Positions 20,850 to 64,000 of a stretch of DNA of 64,000 nucleotides are shown piece after piece. The notes beneath the pieces were generated by a model. The model ran no database searches. It was not told the origin of the DNA and saw only the letters and a list, made by a program, of their open reading frames with translations. Made by a program: the position numbers and the translations under genes. Origin of the DNA: an uncultured Anaerolineaceae bacterium (GTDB taxonomy: Bacteria; Chloroflexota; Anaerolineae; Anaerolineales; UBA11579); NCBI GenBank assembly GCA_964623375.1, contig CAZUTS010000002.1, positions 43,674 through 107,673 on the forward strand, read 5' to 3'. Position 1 is the stretch's first letter, and each line of letters opens with the position of its first letter.

Positions 20850-21146
20850 TCATCCGTGCTTCCTTTCGCTTTCCTCAATGGCCCGCAATAACGCTTCTTC
20901 CTCCAGGGTCAGCAAGTACTCCTCTTCCAGCGTGCGCTGTGGGCGCAGCAGGATATAGATGAGCACTCCCGGGATGAAAAGTATCACCGAGAGCAGCACC
21001 GCCAGCAGCCGGCGGCTGGGCTCTCGCAGCCTGGCCGCCGCGTCGCGGTGGGTCCAGTACACCAAGCTGGCCCACAGGGCCAGCAGGAAAACGCCGCCCC
21101 AGATCGTCAGGGCGGTGGCAAGCGTCTGCAATGTGTTCGCATCCAT
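20850..21146 (-). CDS. Small two-TM membrane protein resembling the N-terminus of Chloroflexota zinc-ribbon proteins
   Basis: WASLVYWTHRDA...LFIPGVLIYILLRPQRTLEEEY..TLEEEALL pattern; no CxxC knuckles before the stop. Confidence 0.7.
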   Translation of the reverse strand: MDANTLQTLATALTIWGGVFLLALWASLVYWTHRDAAARLREPSRRLLAVLLSVILFIPGVLIYILLRPQRTLEEEYLLTLEEEALLRAIEESERKHG

Positions 21147-21474
21147 GCCAAAAATTATAGTGATTTCGCCGCGCTGCGCTGAAAACTGGCACTATGTGGA
21201 AGATGAGGCAACAAGGATTCCTCGCTGGTCGGGGTTCGGCGTTCTGGTGCCGCTTTCAAAACCCGCTCGCTCTGCCAGTCTGGTCTTGCATCTCGTGCCA
21301 GCCAGGCGAAGCTGCCTTTGCTTCGCCCGCGCTGCGCAGCAGCGCACCTTGCCTTTCCCTTCCCCACATGCTAAACTTGCTCACGCCACGCGCGGGAGAA
21401 CGCTCTCGATACCCGAGGGCGTTTTTGTGTGTATTCGCCACAAAACTCCACCCCCGCCGTGGGCGAGGCACACA

Positions 21475-22437
21475 ATGGATGTACTCATTACCGGCTCCGT
21501 AGCCTACGATTACCTCATGACCTTCCCGGGTCTCTTCAAAGAGCACCTGCTAGCCGAACACCTCGAGAAAATCTCCCTCTCGTTCCTGGTAGAAAAGCTG
21601 GACCGCCGCCGCGGCGGCATCGCCCCCAACATCGCCTACACCATGGCCCTGCTCGGCGGCAGCCCCCGCGTCATGGCCGCCGTTGGCGAAGACTTTGCCG
21701 ATTACCGTGCCTTCCTCAAGACCCACGGCGTAGACACCACCAATATGGAAGTCATCGAGGGCACCTTCACCGCCTCGTTCTTCGCCACCACAGACCGCTC
21801 CAACGCCCAGGTCGCCAGCTTCTACCCCGGCGCCATGGCCCACGCCAGCCAGCTCTCGCTCAAAACGGTCAAGGGCGGCACGCCTCAGCTCGTCATCATC
21901 TCTCCTAACGACCCGGCCGCCATGCAGCAATATGTCGCCGAGTGCCAGGAGCTCAACATCCCCTACGTCTACGACCCCAGCCAACAGATCGTGCGCTTTG
22001 ACGGCAGCATTCTGCGCACCGGGGTAGAGGCCGCCCACGCCATGTTCATGAACGAGTACGAGTTTGAGCTCGTCAAAGACAAGACTGGCATGGATGACCA
22101 GGCCATCCTCTCGCACCTTGACTATATGGTCGTCACCCTCGGCCCTAAGGGCGCCGATATCTACACCAAAGACGGCAAAACCTGGGTCGAAGCGGTGCCC
22201 ACCGACACCATCGTAGACCCCACCGGCGGCGGTGATGCCTTCCGCGCCGGCTTCCTCACCGGCGTCAGCCTCGGCCTCGATTGGGAGACCTGCGGCCGCA
22301 TCGGCTCCCTCGCCGCCACCTACTGCCTGGAGCAGGCCGGCCCGCAGACGCACCACTTCTCCCCGGCCGATTTCGTCACCCGCTATCGTGAACACTATGA
22401 CGATGCGGGCAAGCTGGATGGTTTAGGGCAAAATTGA
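21475..22437 (+). CDS. PfkB-family carbohydrate kinase, probable adenosine kinase
   Basis: GSVAYD, RRGGIAPNIAY, YDPSQQ, NEYE and VDPTGGGDAFRAG motifs, resembling bacterial adenosine kinases. Lies directly upstream of ahcY. Confidence 0.8.
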   Translation: MDVLITGSVAYDYLMTFPGLFKEHLLAEHLEKISLSFLVEKLDRRRGGIAPNIAYTMALLGGSPRVMAAVGEDFADYRAFLKTHGVDTTNMEVIEGTFTASFFATTDRSNAQVASFYPGAMAHASQLSLKTVKGGTPQLVIISPNDPAAMQQYVAECQELNIPYVYDPSQQIVRFDGSILRTGVEAAHAMFMNEYEFELVKDKTGMDDQAILSHLDYMVVTLGPKGADIYTKDGKTWVEAVPTDTIVDPTGGGDAFRAGFLTGVSLGLDWETCGRIGSLAATYCLEQAGPQTHHFSPADFVTRYREHYDDAGKLDGLGQN

Positions 22438-22515: not shown

Positions 22516-23784
<1,269 letters not shown>

Positions 23785-27052: not shown

Positions 27053-28165
27053 TTACTGGTCTGGCACACCCACCAGCGGCGTCTGCGCTGGCAGGCTGAA
27101 GTCGAAACCTTCGTTGCCTTCAAAATGAAAATAGGTCACCGCACCCGGCAGAATCTCCACCTCTACGCGGCGCCAGGTGCCGCGGTAGGGCACAGACACT
27201 TCGTAGAGGCCAGCGGGCAGGTTGGTCAGCACTATATTCTCTTTGTAATACGGGTCAGGCTGAATGCGATTGCCCGTGAAATAAGTGTATGTGCTCCACA
27301 GTTGTTCCGTTTCGGCAGAACGCACTTCGATCAGCCAGTTGAGCAGCACTTGATTGCGTTCGTTGGTGACACGGCCCACCAGCACGCCGTAGCCTTCAGG
27401 GGGGGCCAGCCATAGCTCCGGGTTGTAGGTGTTGTAAGTATTGTTCTCACCACTACGCACTTCAAAGTGCAAGTGCGGCCCGGTGGAGAGGCCGGTGTTG
27501 CCAGACATGGCGATCACTTCGCCTTGCTGCACGCGCTGGCCAACTTCAACATTCACCTCGCGCAAGTGCGCGTACACCGTCCAGATGCGGCCACCGTCGT
27601 AACCGAAATTATGGCGAATGACGATGGAGATGCCATAGGGATCATCCAGAAAATAGGGCGAGTTGTAGGTTTGGCCATAGCTGGCCCACACGATGGTGCC
27701 GTCTCCGGCGGCGCGCACCGGTGTGCCTGCATCCATGCCCACATCCAAGCCCATGTGCGGCTCATTGGGATTGCTGCTGGCGTCCTGGCGCACGCCGTAG
27801 CGTTGGCTGGGTGAATACAGGCCCAGGTGCACATTGGCCACGGGGAAGGTGAAATAGAAGTGGTCGTTCGGGCTGAGCGCCAAAGGAGCCTGGATAGCAG
27901 GAAAGCCGCTATACGGCTCCGGCGTGCTGGCGAACTGCGCCTCATTGATGGGGAAGGGCGCCAGGGTGGGCTGCTCGTAGGTGGGCCAGGCGATGCTGGG
28001 TAGCTCGATTGTGGCGCCGGGGGTGCTGCTGGGCGCCTCAGTGAGTGTTGGCGCGGCGGTTGCGCTGGGAGCCGGCGTGTCACTGGGCACGGGCGTAGGC
28101 TGCGGCGCACAGGCGGCGAGCAGCCCGGCGAGCCAGATCAGTTCGAGCGCGCGCACGGGCTTCAT
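27053..28165 (-). CDS. M23 family metallopeptidase lipoprotein
   Basis: Lipobox LAAC, HMGLD (HxxxD) and GPHLHFEVR (HxH) motifs, plus a C-terminal beta domain. Confidence 0.92.
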   Translation of the reverse strand: MKPVRALELIWLAGLLAACAPQPTPVPSDTPAPSATAAPTLTEAPSSTPGATIELPSIAWPTYEQPTLAPFPINEAQFASTPEPYSGFPAIQAPLALSPNDHFYFTFPVANVHLGLYSPSQRYGVRQDASSNPNEPHMGLDVGMDAGTPVRAAGDGTIVWASYGQTYNSPYFLDDPYGISIVIRHNFGYDGGRIWTVYAHLREVNVEVGQRVQQGEVIAMSGNTGLSTGPHLHFEVRSGENNTYNTYNPELWLAPPEGYGVLVGRVTNERNQVLLNWLIEVRSAETEQLWSTYTYFTGNRIQPDPYYKENIVLTNLPAGLYEVSVPYRGTWRRVEVEILPGAVTYFHFEGNEGFDFSLPAQTPLVGVPDQ

Positions 28166-29910
28166 GGGCGCGGTGTGTTGATCTGTTCCAGCGTATATAG
28201 CTGCTGCATAGCCGCCTGCCAGCTCAAGCCTTCACGCAGGGCGAACTGAGTCAGCAGTGTGGATGGGAAGAAGTTGCGCCAGTTACCCTGCGCGGGCAAA
28301 CGGTCAAAGCCGTATTCAGCCGCCAGGGCGGTGAAATCGAGCCAATAGCCATCGGGCAGCTCAGTGGCCAGCTTGCCGCCATCTTGATAGCTGTCTTCAA
28401 TGCCAGAATAACGCGCGACAAAATCCCACGGGTGCTGTGTTAGTGGCTGGCCCAGGCCGCCAGTATCAGCAACTGTGCGCAGGTAGATGCGCCAGTAGGT
28501 CTGCCCGCCGATCTCCTCACGCACGGCGGCCAGCCATCCTGCGTTGAGCAGGCCGCTGCGCAGCTCAAAGGCGCGGCCGGTGTACAGCCAGCTCTCGTAC
28601 TGACCCGGCGGCAGCGGCACACTGAGCGGGGTGAGCGCATTGTCCAGGCTCGATAGCGCATCCCATCCCAACAGTTGCGCCGTGCGCTGGCGCAATGCTT
28701 CAAAGCGCAAGATAGCCGCGTTGCTCAGTTGTGGGGTGGGTGCAAAGACATCGGTGAGAGGCGTGGCCTGGAAGTTGGCGCTCATGGGCTGTGCCCACAG
28801 GGGCTGACTCTGGGCCACGGCGGCGGCTTGCAGCGGCGGTGCTAAAGCCGCCGGCCATTCGCCTGCGCCCCAGGTTGCGCCGTGCAAATTGCCCGGCAGG
28901 GCTTGCGGCGCCAGCGCCAGCTGCCCGTCCAGCGTATAGGCAGTGAGGTAGCTCTCGCCCTGGTTGCTCACCTCCGCCAGCAGCACATCCCCCGCCGGGC
29001 TCCAGCGTGGCTGTTGGCCAGCGCCAACGTAGCGCGGCGCACTCAGCAGATCGCTGACGTAGAGGTTCCACACACCATTACTGTCCTGCTCGGCCCAGGC
29101 CAGCCAGCGGCCGTCCGGCGACCAGGCCGGGGCGGCCTGCGCGCCGCTGGCCTGGGCCAGTTGGGCGAAGCGACCGTCGCCTTCCTGATCCAGGTTGAGC
29201 AGCCACAGCGCGGCAACGCCGCTGCGGTCAGAAATAAAGGCCAGTTGCTGCGCCCCGGGCCGCCAGGCAGGCGAATGGTCACGCGCCGGCGAGAGGCTGA
29301 CGTAGATTGGCTCGACGGAGCCATCCAGCGGGCGAATGGCGACTTCAAGGTTGCCGTCATGGTCGTGTGTGTAGGCCAACCAGCCATTGTCTGACCAGCT
29401 TGGGCTGCCGTCATAGGCGGCATCGTTAGTGAGCTGGGCGGTGATACCGGTAGCCAGCTCCAGCACGTACAGATCCCAATTGCCGCCGCGGTTGGAGGCG
29501 AAGGCCACCAGGTTGTCACGCGGGGACAACGCCGGGCTGAGGTCATCCCATTCGCCATAGGTCAGGTGCGTCAGCGGCTGGCCCAGTAGTTGATGGCTGA
29601 AGAGGCGCGTGTAGCCGTGTTCGCTCAGGCTGAGGATGCGCAAGCCATCCAGCGAGCGGCCCGCGCCCACCACTTGGGGAGCGATAGTCTGCGTAGCCTT
29701 GGCCGTGGGCGTAGGTTCAATGAGTTCAGGTGTAACGGTCTCAGTGCTGAGTGCGGCGGCCTGGCCGCTTTCAGGAGCATACCAATCCGCCAGCAGCGGG
29801 CCGGCGAAGAGGAACAGCAGCACGATGGCGAGGAAGACGCCGGCGGCGGCCAGGCGCAGCCAATAGCCTAGCGAGTGACGTAGCGGGGAGGGGGTGGGGT
29901 CTGAAAGCAT
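28162..29910 (-). CDS. TolB-like PD40/beta-propeller membrane-anchored protein
   Basis: Repeated PALSP/PSWS/PAWRP/PAWSPDG units, N-terminal TM, extra C-terminal domain. Confidence 0.8.
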   Translation of the reverse strand: MLSDPTPSPLRHSLGYWLRLAAAGVFLAIVLLFLFAGPLLADWYAPESGQAAALSTETVTPELIEPTPTAKATQTIAPQVVGAGRSLDGLRILSLSEHGYTRLFSHQLLGQPLTHLTYGEWDDLSPALSPRDNLVAFASNRGGNWDLYVLELATGITAQLTNDAAYDGSPSWSDNGWLAYTHDHDGNLEVAIRPLDGSVEPIYVSLSPARDHSPAWRPGAQQLAFISDRSGVAALWLLNLDQEGDGRFAQLAQASGAQAAPAWSPDGRWLAWAEQDSNGVWNLYVSDLLSAPRYVGAGQQPRWSPAGDVLLAEVSNQGESYLTAYTLDGQLALAPQALPGNLHGATWGAGEWPAALAPPLQAAAVAQSQPLWAQPMSANFQATPLTDVFAPTPQLSNAAILRFEALRQRTAQLLGWDALSSLDNALTPLSVPLPPGQYESWLYTGRAFELRSGLLNAGWLAAVREEIGGQTYWRIYLRTVADTGGLGQPLTQHPWDFVARYSGIEDSYQDGGKLATELPDGYWLDFTALAAEYGFDRLPAQGNWRNFFPSTLLTQFALREGLSWQAAMQQLYTLEQINTPRP

Positions 29911-30463: not shown

Positions 30464-32515
30464 CTACAGCTTGGCCCGGCGAAGCAGCTGCGCGTTGAAG
30501 GCTACGATGATGGTGCTGGCAGACATGAGCACCGCGCCCAGCGCGGGTGAGAGCAGGATGCCGCGGCCTGCCAACACGCCCGCCGCCAACGGAATGGCAA
30601 TGACGTTGTACCCGGTGGCCCACAGCAGGTTCTGCACCATTTTGGCGTAGCTTGCGCGGCTAAGACGGAAGATCTTCAGCACATCCTGTGGGTCATTGTC
30701 CACCAGAATGATGCCAGCAGACTCTACTGCAACATCGGTACCGCTGCCAATGGCAATGCCCACATCGGCGCGCGCCAAGGCGGGCGCATCATTGACGCCG
30801 TCTCCCACCATGGCCACCTTGCGACCCTGGGACTGCAGTTCGGCAATCTTCTTTTCCTTATCTGCGGGAAGCACTTCTGCGAAGAATTCGTTAATGCCCA
30901 GTTCGGCTGCAACTGCCGCTGCTACCGGGGTGCTGTCTCCGGTCAGCATTGCTGCACGGATGCCGAGTTTTTGCAAGTCTTCGATCACGCGTTTGCTCTC
31001 TGGGCGTATTTCGTCTGCGATAGCGAAAACAGCCACCGGCTGCCCACCTGCCAGCAGGTAAATGGCGCTTTGGCCTTTGTTCCCGGCGTCTTCGCCAAAG
31101 GCGGCCAGCTCCGGAGGCAGGCTGGCGCCCAGCGACTCGAGCAGGCGCGGGCCGCCGAGGTGGTAGCGCTGCCCGCCCACCTGCGCTTGCACGCCCAGGC
31201 CCTTCATGGCCTGGAACTCCGTCACCGTGGCGGCGGCCAGGCCGCGCCCGGCAGCTGCGGAGCGGATGGCGCGGGCCAGACTGTGCTCCGAATCACCTTC
31301 CAGCCCGGCGGCCAGGCGCAGCGCTTCATCTTCGTCTTGGCCAGCGATGGTGCGCACCGCAACCACACCCATCTCGCCTTTGGTAAGCGTGCCCGTTTTG
31401 TCAAACACAACTGTATCCACCAAGCGAGCTTCTTCTAGCGCCAAGCGGTCTTTAACCAGCAAGCCGTGTGCTGCGGCTTGCGTTGTGCTGATGGCAACGA
31501 CAAGCGGTACCGCCAAGCCTAACGCGTGGGGGCATGCGATGATGAGCACAGTTACTACGCGCTCCAGTACGAACAGGTCAAATCCACGCGCCAGCCCCCA
31601 TGCCACAGCTGTTAGCGCTGCTGCGAGCAGGGCGAGGTTAAACAGCCAGCCCGCGGCGCGGTCTGCCAGAATTTGAGTCTGTGATTTGCTGAGTTGCGCT
31701 TGCTGTACCAGGCGCATGATGCCGGCCAGCGCCGTGGCGCCGCCCACGGCGGTGACACGCACTCGCAGGCTGCCCTCGCCGTTGATGGCGCCGGCAATCA
31801 CGCGGTCACCCGGCGCTTTGGACACCGGCTTCGATTCACCGCTGAGCATCGATTCGTTTATTTGCGATTTACCCTCAATCACTTCACCATCGGCTGGAAT
31901 GCTGGCGCCTGGCCGAACAAGGAGTACATCACCTATGGCAAGCTCGCTGACAGCTACAGTCTTGGTTTGCCCATCTGTGCTCAGGCGCTCGGCTTGGTCT
32001 GGCAGCAATTTGGCGAGCTCGTCCAAGCTGCTGGAGGCGCGGCGCACGCTTCGCATCTCTATCCAATGGCCTAGAAGCATGATGTCGATGAGCGTGGCTA
32101 ACTCCCAATAGAAACCCTCGCCAAGCGCGAAAAGGAAGGCTGCCGTGCTGTAGACGAAGGATACTGAGATCGCCAGGCTGATTAGCATCATCATTCCCGG
32201 TTTGCGCGCGCGCACCTCAGGAATAGCCATTTGCAGGAAAGGCAGACCGCCATAAAAGAAGATAACTGTGGCAAAGATGGGGGCAATGTAGAGTGAGCCG
32301 GCGAAGGCCGGTGGTGAGATACCAAGCCAGCGCTGGGTCATCTCGCTGTATAGGATTACAGGGATGGTGAGCACCAGCGAGACAAAGAAGCGCGTGCGGA
32401 ACATGGCCTCGTGGCCGCTGTGCTGCGCACCGTTGTGTGCCGAATCCTTGCCGGGCTGTTTGTGTTGAACAGCCTCAGGATTATGGTGGTGTGTGTGGTG
32501 TGTGTGCTCGTCCAT
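30464..32515 (-). CDS. Copper-translocating P1B-type ATPase, His-rich N-terminus (CopB/P1B-3-like)
   Basis: [24 protein letters not shown] and MSAS motifs. His-rich N-terminus with no CxxC metal-binding domain; SGES replaces TGES. Confidence 0.93.
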
Positions 32516-32535
32516 CCCTGTATGTCCTTAATCTT

Positions 32536-32958
32536 CTATGGAATAACTGTAATCTTGGCGTACATACCAGCCGCGTAGTGCCCAGGAAGGTGACAGCCAA
32601 ACTCGTATTCGCCGGGTTCTGTGAAGGTGTGTTCGATGGAAACACTAGCCCCGGGCGTGAGCTGGCTCTCGCCAACATGCAACATGCTGCCTGTGGTGCT
32701 CTCGCCGTGGCCATCTTCTGCCTCAGTGTTACCTTGCATGTCGTGCTCTTCATTCTCGGCCAGCATGACAAACTCATGGTTGATCGCGCCGGGGTTGCTG
32801 ATCACGAAACGATAGGGTGTGCCCACTTTGAATACAGTGAGCGGGGACTCGATGGCGAACTCGGTGAGCTCAATCGGCACTACCTGAGCGGCGGTAGGTT
32901 GGCTACCGCAGGCAGTGAGCAACAGAGCCAGAACCAAAAATGCTGCCATTCTCAACAT
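32536..32958 (-). CDS. Cupredoxin (type-1 copper) lipoprotein
   Basis: Lipobox LTAC, NPGAINHEF and CHLPGHYAAGM (His...Cys-x4-His-x4-Met). Confidence 0.88.
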   Translation of the reverse strand: MLRMAAFLVLALLLTACGSQPTAAQVVPIELTEFAIESPLTVFKVGTPYRFVISNPGAINHEFVMLAENEEHDMQGNTEAEDGHGESTTGSMLHVGESQLTPGASVSIEHTFTEPGEYEFGCHLPGHYAAGMYAKITVIP

Positions 32959-33007: not shown

Positions 33008-33146
33008 GCCTAATTTATATTGTTTGTTCTAAGCAGTCAATGAAGAGGAGGATGAGAAGAAGCCTGCTCTTGGCTTAAGGCAGCCCGGATGCAGGTTAGA
33101 TCTCTAAGTTCTTCGTGTCCCCAGTACAATGAGGGCAGGAGAACTC

Positions 33147-34292
33147 ATGCCAGACCAATTTGAAACTCTAGCCATCCATGCCGGCCAGCAGCCTGACCCC
33201 AGCACTGGCGCGGTGATGACCCCCATCTACCAAACCAGCACCTTCGTGCAAGACGCCGTGGGCGTGCACAAGGGCTACGAATATTCGCGCAGCGGCAACC
33301 CCACGCGCAGCGCGCTGCAGGATTGTTTCGCTGCGCTGGAAGCCGCCAAGCACGGCCTGGCCTTCGCCTCGGGCCTGGCAGCCAGCGACACCATCATCCG
33401 CCAGTTTGCACCGGGTGACCATATCCTGGTGGGTGGTGATGTGTACGGCGGCACCTTCCGCTTGTTCGAGAAGGAGTACAAAGACTTCGGCATTGAGTTC
33501 AGCTATGTTGATATGGATGATGTGCAGGCGGTGCAAGCCAACCTGCGCGCCAACACTAAGCTGGTCTGGCTGGAGACGCCCACCAACCCCTACTTGGGCC
33601 TGGCAGACATTGCTGCCATTGCCGCGCTGCTGAAGCAGCACGGCAGCAAGCCGCTGTTCGCCGTGGATAACACCTTTGCCTCGCCGTACTTGCAGCAGCC
33701 ACTAGTGCTGGGGGCAGATCTTGTCATTCATTCCGCCACCAAGTATCTCGGCGGCCACTCAGACGTGGTGCTGGGGCTGGTTGGGGTCAACGATGATGAT
33801 CTGCACGCCAAGCTGGCCTTTACGCAAAATGCGGCCGGCGCCGTGCCCGGGCCGATGGACAGCTTCCTGGTGTTGCGCGGCATCAAGACCCTGCATCTGC
33901 GTATGGAGCGCCATGCGCACAATGCCGCCGCCATTGCCGAGCATCTGGTGGTGCACCCCAAGGTGAGCCAGATCTATTACCCGTACCACGAGAGCCACCC
34001 GCAGCACGCCCTGGCGCGCAAACAGATGCGCAACGGCGGCGGCATGCTTTCGTTTGAACTCAAGGGCGGTGAAGCGGCTGCGCGTACGGTGGCCGAAAAT
34101 ACACGCCTGTTTGCCCTGGCCGAGTCGCTTGGCGGGGTAGAGTCGCTGATTGAAGTCCCTGCGGTGATGACGCATCTCTCGGTGGCCAACTCGCCCCTGG
34201 CGGTGGACCCCGGGTTGGTGCGCCTCTCGGTGGGCGTTGAAAACGTGGCTGACCTGATTGCAGACCTGGAACAAGCGTTGGCGAAAGCGTAG
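33147..34292 (+). CDS. Cystathionine gamma-lyase/gamma-synthase family PLP enzyme
   Basis: YEYSRSGNPTR, FASGLAA, ETPTNP, DNTFASP, HSATKYLGGHSD and LAESLGGVESL motifs. Confidence 0.93.
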   Translation: MPDQFETLAIHAGQQPDPSTGAVMTPIYQTSTFVQDAVGVHKGYEYSRSGNPTRSALQDCFAALEAAKHGLAFASGLAASDTIIRQFAPGDHILVGGDVYGGTFRLFEKEYKDFGIEFSYVDMDDVQAVQANLRANTKLVWLETPTNPYLGLADIAAIAALLKQHGSKPLFAVDNTFASPYLQQPLVLGADLVIHSATKYLGGHSDVVLGLVGVNDDDLHAKLAFTQNAAGAVPGPMDSFLVLRGIKTLHLRMERHAHNAAAIAEHLVVHPKVSQIYYPYHESHPQHALARKQMRNGGGMLSFELKGGEAAARTVAENTRLFALAESLGGVESLIEVPAVMTHLSVANSPLAVDPGLVRLSVGVENVADLIADLEQALAKA

Positions 34293-34314
34293 GCGCAAAG
34301 CCAAGGAGGCAGTG

Positions 34315-34665
34315 ATGGCCGGAAAAGAGAAGAAAGACAAGAGCCCGGATGCGATGGATGCCGCCGCAGAGGGCATGGGCTATGCCATCGGCGGGCTGGA
34401 AACCAGCTCGGCGGAGTTCACCGAGTTCTTAGCCAAAGTTATCAAAGAGTTCAAAGAAGATTCGCCCGGCGCCACGCTGCGTGATGCCGCCCGCATTGTG
34501 CTGGAACGCGAGGGGCTGGAGCGGTATGCTGGCCGCGTTGAAGAGATCAACGTGTTCTTGAAAGCCTTCCTGGGCGGCAAGAACACGGAATGGGATGAAC
34601 TGGTGGAAGAAGACGCCCGCCGCCGTCTGAAAATTGACAAGACGCTCGGCGGCACGCCGGGCTGA
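34315..34665 (+). CDS. Hypothetical protein (116 aa, charged, helical)
   Basis: RBS AAGGAGG, host-like codon usage, terminator directly after. Confidence 0.75.
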   Translation: MAGKEKKDKSPDAMDAAAEGMGYAIGGLETSSAEFTEFLAKVIKEFKEDSPGATLRDAARIVLEREGLERYAGRVEEINVFLKAFLGGKNTEWDELVEEDARRRLKIDKTLGGTPG

Positions 34666-34680
34666 ACATGGGCTGGCTGC

Positions 34681-34714
34681 AAAAAAAAAGAGCGTGCACA
34701 GCACGCTCTTTTTT
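34681..34714. terminator. Terminator after hypothetical gene
   Basis: A-run AAAAGAGCGTGC-aca-GCACGCTCTTTTTT. Confidence 0.8.
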
Positions 34715-34761
34715 GCGCAGTTAGCTGGTCAACTTGGTCAGCTAGTAAGATCTATCCCCGC

Positions 34762-34882
34762 TGTCTTTACGAGCTGGCGGCATGGAATGCCGCCACGCGA
34801 AGCAATCTCCGATCTGGTCAGGCTAATAGGCTTGGGGATTGCTTCGCTAGCACTGCTACGCAGTGCAACGCTCGCAAAGACG
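34762..34882. repeat. CGTC-type palindromic repeat (reverse orientation relative to the 56720 copy)
   Basis: TGTCTTTACGAG...CGAAGCAATCTCC...GGGGATTGCTTCGCTAGCACTGC...CTCGCAAAGACG. Confidence 0.85.
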
Positions 34883-34947
34883 GGGCGCGGCGCAGTATTA
34901 ATTGACTAACCGACTAATAGACCAAGCGACCGTCTTCGATTAACTGA

Positions 34948-35784
34948 TTACTCGTCGTACAGCACCGTCGGCTCGGCGTAGTAGCGCACCCCTTTGCGTG
35001 CGGTGCGCTCATTCACCCATTGCTGCAGGGCGGCGTTCTTTTCTTCGAGCGATTTGTCCGCCGAGAGCTCATCCAGCGGGTAGTTGACGCGCAGCGCACG
35101 CGGTGACACCGCGAAGCGCGTGATGCCCGGCGGCAGCAGCACGCCGGCAGCGCACAGCTGCAGCACTTCGCTGACTTTGAAGGGGGGGTAGACCACGATA
35201 GCGGTTAGATTATCGTACTTGCCGTGCAGCTCGCGCACTTGCTGGGCCGTGGTGCGGTCGATCACGGCCTTCTTGGCGTACAGCTCGGTAATCTTGTTCA
35301 GCGCCCGCGTGCGGCTGGCCAGGTCGCCCGGCACGCTGCGCGCTACATAGGCCTGGCCGTCCTGAGTCTGCACCCACACAAGGGTTTTGATGGGCCAGCG
35401 GCTCTGCGGCTTCTTCACACTGGAATCGATATCACGCAGCGTGACATCTGGTAGATCGCCAAGGGCGGCTAGAAACTCGTCGCCATCCCAATCCCACAGT
35501 ACATGGTTCCAAGTGTGCAGGTCGAGGCCCGGCGAGTCGGCCTCGACGACTTGCACCAGGGCATGCGGGATGCCCATGTGGTTGAGTGCGCTGGTGCGGT
35601 TGGCGCCATCCAGCACCATGTAGCGCCCGCTGCCATCCGGCAGCGGCGTCACCATGGGCGGATTGCGCAGCACACCGCTGGCGCGCAAGCGCTCCACGAG
35701 CGGCTTGCTGCGCTGGTCATCGTGCCACTCGTGCGGCACCAGGTCAGGCGAGGGGACGATGCGAAGGATTGGAAGAGTAGGCAT
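34948..35784 (-). CDS. ParB/sulfiredoxin-fold protein, SbnI-like free L-serine kinase candidate
   Basis: PHE..D..R, RYMVLDGANR, HTWNH, LPPGITRF.VSPRALRVNYPL and VRYYAEPTVLYDE follow, in order and length, the S. aureus SbnI motifs as I recall them (LHE, RYMVIDGVHR, STWQH, VPAGVTRF.ISGR, MRCYTEKV). Confidence 0.75.
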   Translation of the reverse strand: MPTLPILRIVPSPDLVPHEWHDDQRSKPLVERLRASGVLRNPPMVTPLPDGSGRYMVLDGANRTSALNHMGIPHALVQVVEADSPGLDLHTWNHVLWDWDGDEFLAALGDLPDVTLRDIDSSVKKPQSRWPIKTLVWVQTQDGQAYVARSVPGDLASRTRALNKITELYAKKAVIDRTTAQQVRELHGKYDNLTAIVVYPPFKVSEVLQLCAAGVLLPPGITRFAVSPRALRVNYPLDELSADKSLEEKNAALQQWVNERTARKGVRYYAEPTVLYDE

Positions 35785-35893
35785 GATGGATTTATCGACT
35801 AATCGATTAGTCAGTTAATCACTTAGTCCGTTGGTTGCCTGTTTACTGTTCACTAATCCCTGCTCACTTCTGTTGGCTGTCAACTGCAAACTG

Positions 35894-37300
35894 TCAACCA
35901 TTAATGAAATCAAGCACATCGATTTTCGTCAAAATGCCGACCACGCGGCCGCCCTCGTTCACCAAGACGGCATTGTTGCGCACGATCTCGTGCATAGCAT
36001 CGGGCAGCAGCGTGCTGGCAGGCAGGCTGTTGGGCGCCGGCTGCAGCAGGGTGGCGATGCTGTCTTCGCCGGGGCGGCCGGTTTTGGCCTCCAGTAGGTG
36101 GGTGAGCAGGTCGCCCTCGCGCACGATGCCAGTCACCTCGCTGGCCGCGTCTACCACGGGCAGCTGCGAGATGCCGTATTCCTTCATCTTGTTGACCACA
36201 TCGGCGATGCGGTCTTCGGCGGAGGCCGAGATGAGCTCGCTCATGCTCTTGCCGCCCAGCACCTCGCGCAGGGTGGCCTCACTCCACTCGGAGTCCATGA
36301 AGCCGTTCTCGCGCATCCACTTGTCGTCGAACAGTTTGGTGAGGTAACGGTTGCCCGAGTCAGGCAGAATGACCACGGCCACGCGGTCGGCCGGCAGGCT
36401 CTTGAGGTACTTGAGCGCCCCGGCTACGGCTGCGCCGGCCGAACCGCCAGCGAAGATTCCTTCTTCGCTGACCAGGCGGCGCGTCATCACGAAGCACTCT
36501 TTATCGGTCACGCGGATGATCTCATCCACCACGCTCAGGTCGGTGGTGCTGGGCAGGAAGTCTTCGCCGATGCCCTCAACCTTGTAGGTGATGGCTTCAA
36601 CACCGGGCGGGATCTTGCCCTTGTTCTCCCAAATTTCCTTGAGGATCGAGCCCACCGGATCCACGCCAACGATGCGAATATCCGGGTTCTTTTCTTTGAG
36701 GTACTTGCCCACGCCGCTGATCGTGCCACCCGTGCCCATGGCGATGATGACATCGGTCACCTTGCCGCCGGTTTGCTCCCAGATCTCAGGGCCAGTGGTC
36801 AGGTAGTGGCTGCGCGGGTTCTCAGGGTTGTGATACTGGTTGGCCAGGATGGTGTTGGGGTTCTCGGTGGCCAGGCGTTGGGCTACTTTGTAATAGGAAC
36901 GTGGGTCTTCGGGGGCGACGGCGGTGGGGGTGATCACTACTTTGGCGCCATACGCACGCAGGAGCTGAATTTTCTCCTGGCTCATCTTGTCTGGCATGAC
37001 GAAGATGCACTTGTAGCCGCGCATGCCCGCCACGATGGCCAGGCCCACGCCCGTATTGCCCGAGGTGGCCTCTACGATGGTGCCGCCCGGCTTCAGGCGG
37101 CCACTGGCTTCGGCCTCGTCAATGATGTTTTTGCCAATACGGTCTTTGACCGAGCCGCCTGGGTTAAAGAACTCCACTTTGGCGTATAAGGGCACGCTGT
37201 GGCCTTTGGTTACCCGGTTGAGGCGCACCAGTGGCGTATTGCCAATGGTGCCAATAATGTCGTCAAAAACACGCAGGTCTTGGGATTGGGGAAGGCTCAT
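35894..37300 (-). CDS. Cystathionine beta-synthase with C-terminal CBS domain pair
   Basis: NPGGSVKDR (PLP Lys), EATSGNTG, PEDPRSYY, NQYHNP, GTGGT, KVEGIGEDF and a C-terminal CBS pair (ISQLPVV...GILTKID). Confidence 0.92.
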   Translation of the reverse strand: MSLPQSQDLRVFDDIIGTIGNTPLVRLNRVTKGHSVPLYAKVEFFNPGGSVKDRIGKNIIDEAEASGRLKPGGTIVEATSGNTGVGLAIVAGMRGYKCIFVMPDKMSQEKIQLLRAYGAKVVITPTAVAPEDPRSYYKVAQRLATENPNTILANQYHNPENPRSHYLTTGPEIWEQTGGKVTDVIIAMGTGGTISGVGKYLKEKNPDIRIVGVDPVGSILKEIWENKGKIPPGVEAITYKVEGIGEDFLPSTTDLSVVDEIIRVTDKECFVMTRRLVSEEGIFAGGSAGAAVAGALKYLKSLPADRVAVVILPDSGNRYLTKLFDDKWMRENGFMDSEWSEATLREVLGGKSMSELISASAEDRIADVVNKMKEYGISQLPVVDAASEVTGIVREGDLLTHLLEAKTGRPGEDSIATLLQPAPNSLPASTLLPDAMHEIVRNNAVLVNEGGRVVGILTKIDVLDFING

Positions 37301-40313: not shown

Positions 40314-41441
40314 TTACGCGCTTTCCAGAATCTCGCGCATGGCCGCCAACACGAGCGTGACATATTCCTTGCGGCTGCTGTGGCCCATCAGGCCGATGCG
40401 CCAGATCTGGCCCTTCAGCGGGCCGAGACCTGCGCCCACTTCGATGCCGTAATCGCTCAGCAGGCGGTTCTTGACCAAATCGTGCACCGCTACCGAGGGC
40501 GCCTTCACGGCGGTTACCGTGTGCAGGCGGTTCTCACGCGCTACCAGCATGCTCATATCCAGCGCTTCCACGCCCTTCCACAGGGTCTCTGCGTTCTCCT
40601 GATGGCGGGCAAAGCGATTCTCCAAGCCTTCTTCGGCCACGATGCGCAGCGCTTCGCGCATGGCATAGTTAAGTTGAATAGGCGCGGTGTGATGGTAGGT
40701 GCGCTCCTTGCCCCAATACTTGTGCACCTCGTCCAGCGAGAGGTACCAGTTACCCACGCCCACTTTGCGCTCGGCCAGCGCCTTCTCGGCGCGCGGGCCA
40801 ACCGTGAGCGGAGCCAGGCCGGGTGAAGCGGAGAGGCCCTTCTGCGAGCCGCTGAAGGCCACGTCTACATCCCAATTGTCCACTTCAACCGGCACACCGC
40901 CCAACGAGGCAACCGTGTCCAAAATGAACAGCGCACCCGCTTCATGCGCCGCGGCGGCTAGCTCCTTGATGTAAGGCTGCTTGGCGCCGCTGGAGGTTTC
41001 ACCGTGCACCACCGCCAGGAACTTGTACTTGTGCTGGCTGAGCTGCCTTTTGACTTCGTCAACATCCAGCACCTGGCCCCACGGCACTTCGATGCGGTCC
41101 ACAATGGCGCCGTAGCGGCCGCACATGCTGTAGATACGCTCGCCAAAGTAGCCGATGATGCCGATCAGCACGCGGTCGCCAGGCTCGATCATGTTGCTCA
41201 GCGCGGCTTCCATACCTGCGCTGCCGGTGCCGGAGACGGGGATGGTGAGGCGGTTCTTGGTCTGGAAGGCGAAGCGCAGCAGCTCCTGCACGTCATCCAT
41301 GATCTGCAAAAAGGCCGGGTCCAGGTGGCCGATGACCGGCATGGCCATCGCCTGCAGCACACGCGCCGGCATTTCGCTGGGGCCGGGGCCGAGCAGCACG
41401 CGCTCAGGTACATTCAGATCGTGGAATTGTTTGGGGTCCAT
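40314..41441 (-). CDS. Alanine-glyoxylate/serine-pyruvate aminotransferase family (class V PLP)
   Basis: LLGPGPS, GHLDP.F, SGTGSAGMEA, HGETSSG, DTVASLGG, SGSQKGL and YHHTAP motifs. Confidence 0.93.
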   Translation of the reverse strand: MDPKQFHDLNVPERVLLGPGPSEMPARVLQAMAMPVIGHLDPAFLQIMDDVQELLRFAFQTKNRLTIPVSGTGSAGMEAALSNMIEPGDRVLIGIIGYFGERIYSMCGRYGAIVDRIEVPWGQVLDVDEVKRQLSQHKYKFLAVVHGETSSGAKQPYIKELAAAAHEAGALFILDTVASLGGVPVEVDNWDVDVAFSGSQKGLSASPGLAPLTVGPRAEKALAERKVGVGNWYLSLDEVHKYWGKERTYHHTAPIQLNYAMREALRIVAEEGLENRFARHQENAETLWKGVEALDMSMLVARENRLHTVTAVKAPSVAVHDLVKNRLLSDYGIEVGAGLGPLKGQIWRIGLMGHSSRKEYVTLVLAAMREILESA

Positions 41442-58808: not shown

Positions 58809-59444
58809 CTACTTCTTTTTCTTGGCCGCCGCCTTTTTAGCAGGCGCCTTCTTGGCAGGCGCAGCTTTCTTGGCTACGGGCTTGGCCGCCTTCTTTGCAG
58901 GGGCTTTCTTGGCCGCCAGCTTTTTAGCCGCTGCCTTCTTCGCCGCCGGCTTAGCCGCCTTCTTCTTGACCGCTGCTGCCTTCTTCACAGCCGCCTTAGG
59001 CGCTACCTTCTTGGCCGCCGGCTTGGCTGCCGGCTTTTTAGCCGCAGCCTTCTTCGCCGCGGTCTTCTTGACCGCCGGCTTCTTGGCCGCCGCTGCCTTC
59101 TTCACGGGCGCTGCCTTCTTAGCCGCAGGCTTCGGCGCCTCCGCCTTGGGGGCAAGGGCGGCCGGGGCAGGCGTTACCGGTGCGGGCTTGGGCGCTACGG
59201 GTGCTGGAGCACTGGCGGCTGGCTTGGCTGTGCCGGAAGGCGACCCCGAAGGGGACCCCGCAGGGGACCATTCTGGGGCGAAGCGCATCAACTGGTCACG
59301 CGGCACCACATTGGTGCGGGCGCAGCGCGGGCAATAAGCGTTGTAATGCTTCCAGCCCTTGGCCTCGATCTGGTCGAGCGCGGCGTGGATCGTTTCCTGG
59401 TTCAGGGTGAAAGGGGTGTGGCAATGCGTACAGCGTACAAGCAT
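58809..59444 (-). CDS. Zinc-ribbon protein with histone-H1-like Lys/Ala/Pro tail
   Basis: CTHC...CPRC N-terminal domain, Pro/Ala linker, then about 120 aa of KKAA/AKKP/PAKK repeats. Confidence 0.8.
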   Translation of the reverse strand: MLVRCTHCHTPFTLNQETIHAALDQIEAKGWKHYNAYCPRCARTNVVPRDQLMRFAPEWSPAGSPSGSPSGTAKPAASAPAPVAPKPAPVTPAPAALAPKAEAPKPAAKKAAPVKKAAAAKKPAVKKTAAKKAAAKKPAAKPAAKKVAPKAAVKKAAAVKKKAAKPAAKKAAAKKLAAKKAPAKKAAKPVAKKAAPAKKAPAKKAAAKKKK

Positions 59445-59471
59445 GGTTAACTCCTTTGTCGGTATCTGCAA

Positions 59472-60468: not shown

Positions 60469-60528
60469 CGCCTCTGGCATTGTAACTTAACCTACTTTTG
60501 GCCGTTTCTCACTTGAAAGGAGTCCTAA

Positions 60529-61131
<603 letters not shown>

Positions 61132-61172
61132 GCGCTTCCTCGCCTGAGGGCGCACTCAGCAATACGCAAGAG

Positions 61173-61203
61173 ACATGGGCCAGTAAATTTTACTGGCCCA
61201 TGT
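61173..61203 (+). terminator. Stem-loop after sodA
   Basis: ACATGGGCCAGTAA/TTACTGGCCCATGT inverted repeat. Confidence 0.7.
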
Positions 61204-61273
61204 ACTTTCCGCTAAAAGAGGGCTAGCAAAAATAACAACCAGGGTGTAGAATTGCCTCAACGGAGATTTGCAA

Positions 61274-61699
61274 ATGACCCACATCATCACTAGCTTGTGC
61301 CTGCGCGACGGTGGTTGCGTAGAGGTTTGCCCTGTTGAATGTATCGTTCCCGGTATGCCCCAGGATCAACACCCTTGGTACTACATTGATCCTAACACCT
61401 GCATTGACTGCGGTGCCTGCATCCCCGAGTGTCCCTTTGAGGCCATCTACACTGAGGATGAAGTGCCCGATGCGTACGAAGCCAAGGCGGACCAGAAGCA
61501 GGCCAAGCCGGCCGGCACCCCTGGTTTTGCTGAGCACTACGAGGGCAGCAACCACCACGGCCACGCCGTGGTGATGGAAACGGTTAAGACCCTCACCGCG
61601 GGCGAGGCGCTTAACCTCCGTGACGACATCCAGGCCAACTACGATTACTTCACCAGCGGCCCCGGTTACTGGGACGGCTGGCAGCAGCACGCCAAGTAG
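61274..61699 (+). CDS. Dicluster (7Fe-type) ferredoxin with extended C-terminus
   Basis: C.....CVEVCPVECI and CIDCGACIPECP motifs, then EDEVP and a long insert before IQANYDYF. Confidence 0.9.
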   Translation: MTHIITSLCLRDGGCVEVCPVECIVPGMPQDQHPWYYIDPNTCIDCGACIPECPFEAIYTEDEVPDAYEAKADQKQAKPAGTPGFAEHYEGSNHHGHAVVMETVKTLTAGEALNLRDDIQANYDYFTSGPGYWDGWQQHAK

Positions 61700-61717
61700 C
61701 CTGAAAGCAAAAGAATC

Positions 61718-61746
61718 AAGAGCCCGCCAATTGGCGGGCTCTTTTT
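61718..61746. terminator. Terminator after ferredoxin gene
   Basis: AAGAGCCCGCCAATTGGCGGGCTCTTTTT. Confidence 0.85.
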
Positions 61747-61757
61747 CTTGCTGCAGT

Positions 61758-62384
61758 TTACACAGTCCTACTTTTCCGCTTGCGTGGGGCAGGCCTATCA
61801 AGCATCCCAGCTCTTTTTTCGGCTAAATATCTGCCAACCATGAATTGGCCATTGACGATGGCCAAGTAATAGAAAAGCAGGCCAAAGATCCACCAAGGTG
61901 GGTCTACCCCTGCTTTCAATGATTCTCTGCCAAGTAGTCTCCCAAATTGCGCACCAAAGACAGCCAGTGCTGGAATGCTTGCCAAGGAGAAAGAAAGTAG
62001 CAACTGCCCTAGTTTGGTTTTTGGTGTTATTTGTCCCCTATACAGTTGAATCGTGAAGTCAGCAAACCTAAACTGCAACGCAATGTAGAAAATGTAAATT
62101 CCACCAAGGATCAGCAGGCTGTGTGCAAAGTTCAGAAAGAACTTGGAGGCAACCATGCGTGCTGAGGCCAGAACAAGGATGACGTTAAAGACCAATACTC
62201 CATACTGCTTCGCACGGTCAAAGGGCTTTTTGTAATAGATGATCCCAACTGCAATGGAACATAACAAGCAAATTATGAACAAGCCCATAGAGAAGGATGG
62301 AATGCCATAGCTTAATGCGGAGACAATGATCAAGACCAAAGAAATAAGGACTGGAGAAACCCTTGGTGTTTTTTGAGGTTTCAT
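61758..62384 (-). CDS. Multi-TM membrane protein of unknown function (immunity-like)
   Basis: About 6 TM helices, RBS AAGGAG, AT-rich. Confidence 0.75.
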   Translation of the reverse strand: MKPQKTPRVSPVLISLVLIIVSALSYGIPSFSMGLFIICLLCSIAVGIIYYKKPFDRAKQYGVLVFNVILVLASARMVASKFFLNFAHSLLILGGIYIFYIALQFRFADFTIQLYRGQITPKTKLGQLLLSFSLASIPALAVFGAQFGRLLGRESLKAGVDPPWWIFGLLFYYLAIVNGQFMVGRYLAEKRAGMLDRPAPRKRKSRTV

Positions 62385-62415
62385 GGTTTCTATACTAACT
62401 CCTTATTCTGAATCT

Positions 62416-62754
62416 TCATCCAGTTGGCGAGAAATCTTCTATCCCTCTGATGTATTCGCTTAGTGCATCTTTCATTTGCTGGATTTGATCTGGATAGAAG
62501 ATGCTCACTCCTATTCCAAAGAAAATCGAACCAATAAGCACAGCTGTACCTGCGGCGGCGGCTGTTAAAAAACCTGCGCTTACTAAAAGCGCTGCTACAA
62601 CTGCCACAGCTGCGCCAATAACTAGGTTGACGCCAATGTCAACCAAGGTTGAACTCACAAAGTCATGTTTATCTCCACCTGCCTTATCCCTGAGAGTGAA
62701 ATCATAAAGGTTCAAAGCTAGAGAGCTGTAAATAGAAGACCCGCTAAAGTCCAA
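62416..62754 (-). pseudogene. Probable orphan C-terminal fragment of a polymorphic toxin (hydrophobic hairpin)
   Basis: No ATG or RBS; the frame is open upstream into the neighbouring gene. Contains a long Gly/Ala/Val hydrophobic stretch. Confidence 0.45.
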
Positions 62755-62785
62755 ACGGAGTGTTGGACTAAAAGAGTAGGCATCC

Positions 62786-63487
62786 TTAATGCGTTCCTTT
62801 GAGTTTTCTTGTACGTAGAACGAGAATAGTTCTATGACCTGCTATTATCGTTATCAGGATCAGAAAACAAGAACCTAGAAAGATAAGGAATGAGAGGCCA
62901 ATGTGGATAGTTTCTATTCTTGCGGCTACTCTTACCAGAGTGAAAATTCCACACCCTATTGCCAGTATCTGAAGGAATTTTCCGTATCCTATTAGCCTCC
63001 CTTGTTTCTTTTTTGTTCCTAGATTGAATTCCGGATATGATCTCGGAGCCCAATAAACTCCCATCAATGTGATGGCTGTAAAGATGGCAAGATACTCCAG
63101 CCTTGTGCTCTCCTGATGTTCAAAACCAGGCGCTATTGTTAGAACATCCATTGATAGTTTGAGAAACAACAAGGTCAAAACTAGTAGCCAAGCGATACTG
63201 AAGTTTGCAAATAGCAGAGCTTTCTGCTCTGCTCGCACGTTGGCATGCTTTGCCTGCTTGATACTCCAGAACTTGAATGTCATAAGTGCTTGGGCAAAGA
63301 GTAGTAATCCATACGTAGTGGCGTAGGAAGCAGAAAAAATGTGTTCTTGAGCCAGCAGGGCGGAAATTGGAAGAAGCACATAAAGGATCAGGAACCTAAT
63401 GGATATTTCGCTACAGCCCCTATCATGCCAGTAGGCTACTTGGCGTCGGAAAGTTTCTTCTGCTTCGTTTAGATAAAAATTGCTCAT
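62786..63487 (-). CDS. Multi-TM membrane protein of unknown function (immunity-like)
   Basis: About 6 TM helices, basic C-terminus, AT-rich. ATG at 63487 preferred over TTG at 63595. Confidence 0.7.
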   Translation of the reverse strand: MSNFYLNEAEETFRRQVAYWHDRGCSEISIRFLILYVLLPISALLAQEHIFSASYATTYGLLLFAQALMTFKFWSIKQAKHANVRAEQKALLFANFSIAWLLVLTLLFLKLSMDVLTIAPGFEHQESTRLEYLAIFTAITLMGVYWAPRSYPEFNLGTKKKQGRLIGYGKFLQILAIGCGIFTLVRVAARIETIHIGLSFLIFLGSCFLILITIIAGHRTILVLRTRKLKGTH

Positions 63488-63707
63488 GTGTACTCTTCCC
63501 CAGCTAAAGCAACCATAACAAACAACTGGGATTAACCAGCTTGCAATATTGCCAGCATGGATATCCGCAGACGTAATCCTTGACGCCTTGCACAAAGTAC
63601 GAATGCTTCTTCAAATTCACTGCTATACCCGCCAGCATGCCGCGCATCCACGTACACCGCCTCCCCATCAAGGCCCTTGAAGTTTAACGCCTGCCGCCCG
63701 CACCCTC

Positions 63708-63730
63708 ACCCATGATGATGATTAAAACTT
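63708..63730. repeat. 23-bp direct repeat, copy 2 (identical to 20707-20729)
   Basis: ACCCATGATGATGATTAAAACTT. Confidence 0.9.
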
Positions 63731-63808
63731 TTCAATGGACTAAAATGGGTGTGCGCCCATGGCCCAGTGCCAGCGGCCATAACACCACTACTTATCTCAA
63801 AGGACAGT

Positions 63809-64000
63809 ATGAGCCAAGACGTACGTATTGAACGTGACTCCCTCGGCGAAGTGAAAGTGCCTGCCGGGGCCTTCTATGGCGCACAGACCCAGCGTGCCGT
63901 AGAGAATTTCCCAGTCTCCGGTCTCAAGCCGTGGCGCGCCTTCGTATGGTCCATGGCCGCCATCAAGCGTGCCGCCGCCGATGTCAACACCGGCCTCGGC
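63809..64000 (+). CDS. fumC: Class II fumarate hydratase (fumarase/aspartase superfamily), 3' partial
   Basis: [29 protein letters not shown]; RBS AAGGA. AspA is not fully excluded. Confidence 0.75.

Follow-up and report, generated by a model that had tools for sequence, protein, structure and literature searches.

The SbnI protein of Staphylococcus aureus and S. pseudintermedius is an ATP-dependent kinase of free L-serine that acts in staphyloferrin B synthesis. It feeds its product, O-phospho-L-serine (OPS), to SbnA, a pyridoxal phosphate (PLP) enzyme of the CysK/CBS superfamily that is encoded by an adjoining gene. To our knowledge only one free serine kinase has been characterised besides this staphylococcal enzyme, namely SerK from a few hyperthermophilic archaea. 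Here we describe a 278-aa protein which, by its predicted structure, shares the fold of both and is encoded in a 64,000-nucleotide stretch of DNA from an uncultured Anaerolineaceae bacterium of the Chloroflexota (contig CAZUTS010000002.1, positions 43,674 to 107,673), called the window below. Its gene is flanked by genes for a cystathionine beta-synthase (CBS; cbs) and a cystathionine gamma-lyase-family enzyme (cgl), and a reverse-transsulfuration cluster is the best explanation of the three. Judging from its sequence the protein very probably has free serine or OPS as the substrate of an enzymatic activity, and the leading single reading of the locus, although a tentative one, is that it would supply the CBS with OPS as an activated substrate.

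No serine kinase is known to us in the cbs (Rv1077)/metB (Rv1079) system of Mycobacterium tuberculosis. A 2026 census of the PLP enzymes of that organism catalogues Rv1077 as a biochemically characterised, conventional CBS (Enzyme Commission (EC) number 4.2.1.22) and Rv1079 as both lyase and synthase in vitro and a lyase in vivo, within a route that leads from methionine via homocysteine and cystathionine to cysteine (PMC12910592). SerK of Thermococcus kodakarensis (TK0378) is ADP-dependent and feeds OPS to a CysK that depends on it, likewise a member of the CysK/CBS superfamily, and a second role in serine assimilation has been proposed for it (PMC5120207). The serK genes of archaea adjoin genes for phosphoglycerate dehydrogenase (PGDH) and an aminotransferase (PMC5120207).

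Genes of the cluster

The three genes (Table 1) lie where an earlier note, written from the sequence alone, had placed them, save that the cgl reading frame opens at 33129; the start given in that note, 33147, is the second in-frame ATG, at about which conservation among relatives begins. What the note had seen at the locus is confirmed throughout, and its interpretation is partly supported. The CBS combines a PALP domain (Pfam, E 1.4e-82) with two CBS domains, passes the cut-off of the equivalog model for cystathionine beta-synthase, TIGR01137, over its full length (541.4 bits against 510) and aligns from end to end with Rv1077 (398 bits) and with human CBS (360 bits). The cgl gene is transcribed towards the cbs-kinase-like pair. 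Its product matches the Pfam family Cys_Met_Meta_PP over its full length (E 7.6e-145) and passes the cut-off of the NCBIfam model PRK07811 (559.6 bits against 513), which we take to describe enzymes of the Rv1079 type. It appears to be of the same orthologue type as MetB of M. tuberculosis, lyase and synthase directions being unreadable from the sequence. The logic from methionine to cysteine would be the same as in the mycobacterial pair. Unlike that pair, the window has a SerK/SbnI-fold gene between the two genes, and its cgl is convergent.

Nothing resembling a terminator was detected on the minus strand of the spacer between cbs and the kinase-like gene, so that the two are probably co-transcribed. 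A pattern scan gave none on that strand between 32900 and 37600, and its promoter-like and terminator-like matches at the cluster were no commoner than in shuffled sequence. The public contig nearest to the window, DAOMSJ010000001.1, has counterparts of the same proteins that are 98-100% identical. Control of the cluster by a riboswitch or other RNA element was considered and dropped, as Rfam at gathering threshold gave only a tRNA (2116-2187).

Fold and catalytic residues of the kinase-like protein

The 278-aa protein has no match in Pfam, DUF1015 included. The NCBIfam equivalog model of SbnI (NF033589) aligns with residues 7-273 at model positions 8-249 of 254 (E 2.5e-17), in agreement with the earlier claim that the protein tracks SbnI end to end. 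Its score of 63.1 bits falls short of the cut-off of 350, and the SerK equivalog model (NF053625) aligns only with the N-terminal 80 residues, at 33.8 bits against a cut-off of 380. Its identity to SbnI is only about 20%, and by its score the protein is a homologue of SbnI and not its equivalog.

A family profile built from 18 homologues found three SbnI structures in the PDB over the full length (E about 1e-19) and SerK at E 7.5e-5. The AlphaFold model of the protein (predicted local distance difference test score (pLDDT) 87.7; predicted template modelling score 0.85) was compared by Foldseek with both kinases, a comparison the earlier note had suggested, and matched SbnI at E 2e-15 and SerK at E 1e-12. 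In both cases the two domains are covered, with template modelling scores (normalised to target length) of up to 0.77 over 258-277 alignment columns for SbnI and 0.78 over 240-244 columns for SerK, the sequence similarity to the latter being limited to the N-terminal domain. Structures of ParB, Noc and Srx (sulfiredoxin) cover only about 80 N-terminal residues. Going by the model, the protein has the two-domain architecture of SerK and SbnI, in which a ParB/Srx-like N-domain is followed by a C-domain specific to these two kinases. The DUF1015 proteins, termed SerBK in the GapMind 2026 preprint, have likewise been proposed to be serine kinases and are predicted to fold like SbnI. Their sequence family is another one, however, and they have not been reported to be connected with CBS.

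Glu19 of the HEW motif and Asp59 of the LDGANR motif align with the catalytic acidic residues of the known kinases, namely Glu20 and Asp58 of SbnI, reportedly essential in that enzyme (Verstraete 2018), and Glu30 of SerK (Nagata 2017). Mutants of E30 of SerK are named in PDB titles, and the HE motif that holds the catalytic Glu is common to SerK and the window protein. Glu19, Asp59 and several Arg, Trp, His and Tyr residues never vary among 80 homologous loci (see below), six fusion proteins and SbnI. The residues that the window protein has in common with SbnI include His18, Glu19, Arg25, Asp59, Gly60, Arg63, Trp92, His94, Tyr169, Arg177, Thr222, Arg223, Phe224, Arg229, Arg267, Tyr269 and Glu271. 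The DGxHR motif of the known kinases (DGVHR in SbnI), with its His before Arg, is absent from the window family, which has DGANR, with Asn62 in 79 of the 80 loci and mostly Thr in the fusions. Since both equivalog cut-offs are missed and Asn replaces this His, the protein, bacterial and mesophile-like where SerK is archaeal, is likely a member of a third subfamily of the free-serine-kinase fold, one found mainly in Chloroflexota and distinct from both SbnI and SerK.

The C-terminal tail KGVRYYAEPTVLYDE (residues 264-278; window 34948-34992, minus strand) is nearly invariant in the family and is partly kept in SbnI (Arg, Tyr and Glu). Residues 270-278 have a pLDDT below 50. The tail may be a dimerisation or partner-docking peptide.

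The protein might instead be mainly a regulator, as SbnI also is, that senses a ligand such as serine, OPS or a nucleotide and controls the expression of cbs and cgl, or the activity of the CBS, instead of carrying metabolic flux. Under its NCBIfam name SbnI is a bifunctional transcriptional regulator/O-phospho-L-serine synthase, ParB folds frequently act as nucleotide-dependent switches (PMC12704722), and the conserved tail, which is modelled at low confidence, could be an interaction peptide. However, the catalytic Glu and Asp and the conserved Arg set are invariant in about 86 sequences, which argues for chemistry rather than regulation. Pfam finds no helix-turn-helix domain in the protein, members of the family are fused to metabolic enzymes, and the gene is kept at loci with nothing nearby to control. 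A mainly regulatory role is very improbable.

Conservation of the linkage

In a library of 1.84 billion proteins the family comprises 1360 cluster representatives at E <= 0.001, of which 348 remain at E <= 1e-30. Relatives were confirmed at 231 matched stretches in a collection of one genome per species, and gene context was compared at the 80 loci kept, which are all from Chloroflexota and mostly from Anaerolineales. The cbs gene stands directly 5' of the kinase-like gene, in the same orientation, at 32 of the 80 (31 of the 70 that have 1.5 kb or more of sequence upstream), at a distance of 13-244 nt with a median of 53.5. A cgl gene is found within 6.3 kb at 24 of the 32 cbs-positive loci and at none of the 48 cbs-negative ones (Fisher p = 6e-14). 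Eleven loci have a compact form in which the convergent cgl lies only 15-160 nt from the kinase-like gene. Placed on a neighbour-joining tree, the kinase-like proteins form one clade that is almost entirely linked to cbs, a second that is mixed and a third, of 28 loci, that is wholly unlinked, so that linked members occupy two deep clades and diverge down to about 46% identity.

The pairing of cbs with the kinase-like gene is therefore real, conserved, lineage-specific and above chance. The linkage of kinase, cbs and cgl on which the earlier note had built holds for the cbs-positive loci, most of which also have cgl, and fails at the 48 others. Because the kinase-like gene is kept at tight spacing between cbs and cgl, it is probable that an enzyme of free serine or OPS is functionally coupled to the two. 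Just as the note had said that the window has no SbnB-like dehydrogenase or siderophore synthetase, Pfam scans of its other large ORFs found no sbn context (sbnA, sbnB or siderophore synthetases), nor is any present among the conserved neighbours at the 80 loci.

PLP enzymes also occur near some of the unlinked kinase-like genes. Two loci (L051, L052) have a ThrC-like gene 3.6 kb upstream, and L062 encodes a PALP protein of 532 aa. These were one-offs that are not conserved and were set aside.

Fusion proteins

Twelve of the top 150 cluster representatives carry a D-2-hydroxyacid dehydrogenase domain N-terminal to the SbnI-like domain. Four of them are full-length at 582-605 aa (P0252, P0251, P0254 and P0236) and eight are truncated at contig ends. 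The dehydrogenase domain of P0252, the one checked against NCBIfam, has its best match in the phosphoglycerate dehydrogenase model TIGR01327 (384 bits). These fusions to SerA-like PGDH tie the family to serine and phosphoserine, are the one indirect support for phosphorylation of free L-serine, and echo the archaeal neighbourhood of serK and PGDH (PMC5120207). Together with the fusion P0274 described below, they are independent evidence, not based on homology, that the family handles O-phospho-amino acids, in all likelihood serine and OPS. The neighbours of the SerA-like/SbnI-like fusion genes at loci L083 and L164-L167 include LysW/LysX genes and a gene for a pterin-binding protein. No serC gene or gene for an OPS-using enzyme adjoins the fusions P0254 and P0270 at the loci examined, and their context was discarded as an uninformative clue.

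The same fusions are compatible with a role in serine supply, in which the protein would replace phosphoserine phosphatase and convert OPS to serine, by reverse phosphotransfer or by hydrolysis, and so complete the phosphorylated serine pathway for a canonical CBS. SerA is the first enzyme of that pathway, and a supply role would also fit the presence of the gene across the sampled Anaerolineales loci, its housekeeping gene order and the normal look of the CBS. Weak side activities, on the other hand, commonly rescue serB mutants, which lessens the weight of one further point in its favour: DUF1015 proteins, with their SbnI-like predicted fold, rescued a serB mutant of Escherichia coli (bioRxiv 10.1101/2024.10.14.618325). 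The reaction of OPS and ADP to serine and ATP is thermodynamically unfavourable, with K estimated at about 4e-4 (bioRxiv 10.1101/2024.10.14.618325). Furthermore, both characterised relatives run from serine to OPS and the 278-aa protein lacks a Pfam DUF1015 match, which together make serine supply an unlikely function.

P0274 (856 aa, HZB96656.1, Herpetosiphonaceae) is a fusion of a different kind, in which a PLP enzyme of the class I/II aminotransferase fold, resembling CobD and HisC, is joined to an SbnI-like domain. CobD (L-threonine-O-3-phosphate decarboxylase) and HisC act on phospho-amino compounds, and P0274 could combine a hydroxy-amino-acid kinase with a PLP enzyme that acts on the phosphorylated product, such as L-threonine phosphate in cobamide synthesis. 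At its locus (L168, 780-3350) a ParA/CbiA-family gene is next downstream. P0274 suggests that members of the family differ in the substrates they accept. The window protein might phosphorylate another hydroxy-amino acid, such as L-homoserine or L-threonine, for the gamma-synthase-family enzyme or another PLP enzyme and not for the CBS. The best model for the cgl product does carry the name cystathionine gamma-synthase, and the plant enzyme of that name uses O-phosphohomoserine. However, the tight linkage on the same strand is with cbs and not with cgl, the commonest fusion partner is a dehydrogenase of the serine pathway, and forward and reverse transsulfuration in one cluster would be incoherent. 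The chance that the substrate is another hydroxy-amino acid seems slim.

P0231 (438 aa; L081, 8001-9317) joins a Prok-JAB domain to an SbnI-like one. A link to the CysO/Mec/CysM pathway of OPS use was considered for it and dropped, as neither cysO nor cysM is present at the locus. The gene is preceded by a molybdopterin oxidoreductase operon and followed by a response regulator gene.

Proposed pathway

It is proposed that the kinase-like protein would phosphorylate free L-serine with a nucleotide as donor to give OPS, that the co-transcribed CBS would join OPS and homocysteine into cystathionine with release of phosphate, and that the gamma-lyase would then split cystathionine to yield cysteine. 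If OPS replaced serine at an otherwise ordinary-looking CBS with a Bateman module, the release of phosphate would make this step irreversible and reverse transsulfuration would become ATP-driven. We infer the kinase activity, its direction, its nucleotide and, above all, the acceptance of OPS by the CBS. The full sequence from serine through OPS and cystathionine to cysteine is possible, yet far from assured, even as the foremost single explanation. AhcY, named in the earlier note as the source of homocysteine, is indeed encoded in the window, but its gene, a housekeeping one at a distance of 11 kb, contributes little to the case.

By analogy, the cluster would be the third case of a module made up of a free serine kinase and a fold-type-II PLP enzyme of beta-replacement, after SbnI with SbnA and SerK with CysK. 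In Bacillota the partner of SbnI is SbnA, whereas here it would be a full-length CBS in Chloroflexota. The partner of SerK is a sulfhydrylase that uses sulfide, whereas the window has CBS and the gamma-lyase-family enzyme, with homocysteine as the sulfur donor. The module as such is known; what would be new is its pairing with CBS and CGL, and a large subfamily in Chloroflexota that includes SerA fusions. We know of no EC entry for a CBS reaction with OPS. The view of the earlier note that a kinase-activated CBS route is undescribed agrees with the literature seen, in which no SbnI- or SerK-like gene paired with cbs and no OPS-using CBS was found, subscription journals being thinly covered. 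In a wider form of the proposal the subfamily, with its SerA-like and CobD/HisC-like fusions, would consist of kinases of free hydroxy-amino acids which, across Chloroflexota, activate the substrates of PLP enzymes in advance, and taken jointly with an ATP-driven CBS route this remains speculative.

Substrate of the CBS and a possible general role of the kinase-like protein

Several features of the CBS and of the distribution of the kinase-like gene weigh against the proposed pathway. In the CBS the Lys, TSGNTG, QY, GTGGT, EGIGED and GGS motifs are identical to those of Rv1077. When the catalytic domains of 34 kinase-linked and 79 unlinked CBSs were compared, five positions were specific to the linked group (Q112, D183, V184, V277 and W339), none of which is basic, adds positive charge or sits in a substrate motif. 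All five are also common to the CBS of locus L085 (69% identity), where cbs is followed directly by cgl with no kinase-like gene between them. They were considered as a signature of the kinase and rejected as lineage markers only. The Lys of YK(V/I)EGIG with its longer preceding loop, a candidate signature first thought to be CapA-like, met the same fate when it proved widespread among CBSs from other phyla whose genes lack a kinase-like neighbour. At the level of sequence the linked CBSs show no lineage-specific positive charge or active-site change for the recognition of phosphate. Moreover, the CBS enzymes of humans, flies and yeast "could barely utilize" O-acetylserine or OPS, with sulfide as the other substrate (PMC4133348). 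The supposition of the earlier note that this CBS takes OPS thus fails to find support in its sequence, in which no adaptation to phosphate is visible, and if the enzyme did use OPS, the same ability would have to exist in ordinary bacterial CBSs of the type found in M. tuberculosis.

An OPS-using enzyme does exist in the CBS clade, because CapA, the cysteate synthase of Bacteroidota, makes cysteate via the sulfonation of phosphoserine (PMC10191378). The closest solved structure to the catalytic domain of the window CBS is of this type, 9k2p (357 bits), whose sequence passes the NCBIfam cut-off for CapA with 633 bits against 600. The window CBS reaches only 395 bits with the same model. CapA uses sulfite and lacks the Bateman module, and its motifs GHSAK, SSGNT and EGIGKN correspond to GGSVK, TSGNT and EGIGED in the window CBS, which adds a further point against use of OPS, since Glu-Asp directly follows GIG where CapA has Lys-Asn.

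On the side of the kinase, 48 of the 80 loci carry the gene without an adjacent cbs, and in 39 of these the sequence upstream, 1.5 kb or more, was long enough to judge. The gene therefore has a role for which this CBS is not needed. At these loci it sits in a housekeeping block (with neighbours such as RuvX, MltG, DegV, RluA, an M23 peptidase and a TolB-like protein) with identical core residues, and the family has Asn where SbnI and SerK have the His of DGxHR. A survey from the side of the CBS, which used an Anaerolineales CBS as query, gave 80 diverse CBS loci from metagenomes, only one of which has a kinase-like gene downstream (L084, the most query-like). Adjacency of cbs and cgl without the kinase-like gene is common among them, and cgl lies within about 4 kb in about 30, most of these CBSs being 42-58% identical to the query.

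This distribution is what would be expected if the protein were a general serine kinase of Anaerolineales whose OPS flows to other sinks, such as serine assimilation (serine to OPS, 3-phosphohydroxypyruvate and 3-phosphoglycerate, as proposed for SerK) or an OPS-dependent cysteine synthase encoded elsewhere. The CBS would then use plain L-serine, and adjacency would reflect either co-regulation in cysteine and serine metabolism or inherited gene order. The lack of OPS-type adaptation in the window CBS and the poor use of OPS by canonical CBSs both suit this explanation, and the fusions to SerA-like PGDH parallel the archaeal clusters of serK, PGDH and aminotransferase genes that are read as serine assimilation (PMC5120207). 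Nevertheless, a kinase that consumes serine would compete for substrate with a co-transcribed CBS that consumes it as well. The spacers to the flanking cbs and cgl are very short, the trio is kept across deep divergence, and no gene for another OPS-using enzyme was found to be conserved near the kinase-like gene at the unlinked loci. A general kinase whose OPS bypasses the CBS is accordingly rather unlikely, if still a serious contender. For the proposed supply of OPS to the CBS, kinase genes without an adjacent cbs are explicable because the T. kodakarensis kinase is proposed to serve both cysteine synthesis and serine assimilation (PMC5120207), and such a dual role fits the distribution of the window family.

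Significance

If the assignment is correct, the family constitutes a third and much larger, bacterial branch of free serine kinases. Should it feed the CBS, OPS would join serine and O-acetylserine as a third form of activated serine in transsulfuration, and the genome-based scoring of cysteine biosynthesis and of serine/OPS steps would change for Chloroflexota, a phylum abundant in wastewater, sediments and soils. If it acts in serine assimilation or supply instead, it would still fill a step of the phosphorylated serine pathway. Steps that gain or lose phosphate were the most frequent unexplained gaps in a recent survey of amino-acid biosynthesis.

Other features of the window

Table 1. Features of the cbs cluster and its surroundings, in coordinates of the window
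Feature	Position	Strand	Remarks
cbs	35894..37300	-	468 aa; PLP catalytic domain and Bateman module (two CBS domains), no haem domain; ORF list, Pfam, TIGR01137
Codon of Schiff-base Lys52 of cbs	37145-37147	-	SVKDR motif verified
Spacer between cbs and kinase-like gene, 109 nt	35785..35893	-	pattern scan
SbnI/SerK-fold protein, 278 aa, candidate free L-serine kinase (O-phospho-L-serine-forming)	34948..35784	-	
Codon of Glu19, HEW motif of kinase-like gene	35728-35730	-	motif verified
LDGANR motif of kinase-like gene	Asp59 codon 35608-35610; Asn62-Arg63 35596-35601	-	motif verified
Cystathionine gamma-lyase/gamma-synthase-family PLP enzyme (cgl)	33129..34292	+	Pfam, NCBIfam; alternative start ATG 33147
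Small Lys/Glu-rich ORF downstream of cgl	34258..34665	+	overlaps cgl stop codon; likely start internal ATG near 34315
AhcY (S-adenosylhomocysteine hydrolase)	22522..23784	+	Pfam AdoHcyase, AdoHcyase_NAD; context only, outside cluster

The small ORF downstream of cgl matches no Pfam or NCBIfam family. It is kept directly 3' of cgl at six loci (L001-L005 and L010) with 77-97% identity, and its membership of the cluster is uncertain.

On the other side of cgl, a cupredoxin-like protein and a P1B-type (heavy-metal) ATPase are encoded on the minus strand (30464-32958), between cgl and the M23 peptidase/TolB-like pair (27053-29910). The two genes look like a local insertion, because in other Anaerolineales the M23 peptidase/TolB-like pair usually adjoins the kinase-like gene downstream. 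A class-V aminotransferase gene lies 3 kb from the cluster (40314-41441, minus strand), a position kept only in the closest relatives (L001-L005). Its best matches are to aspartate-glyoxylate, pyridoxamine-pyruvate and PhnW types, with a weak match to serC_3, and the enzyme could touch serine or hydroxypyruvate metabolism.

Directly upstream of AhcY a PfkB-family kinase of 492 aa is encoded on the plus strand (20959-22437), with the PfkB domain at residues 205-464 and an N-terminal extension of about 200 aa that has no Pfam match. The two look like the adenosine kinase and S-adenosylhomocysteine hydrolase pair of the methyl cycle. At the far end of the window four consecutive minus-strand ORFs (60487-63595) belong to no Pfam family and a Lys-rich, HC2-like protein is encoded at 58809-59471. 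Over the final 2 kb the G+C content is down to 0.46 from about 0.60, and the end of the window (60487-64000) may be foreign DNA.

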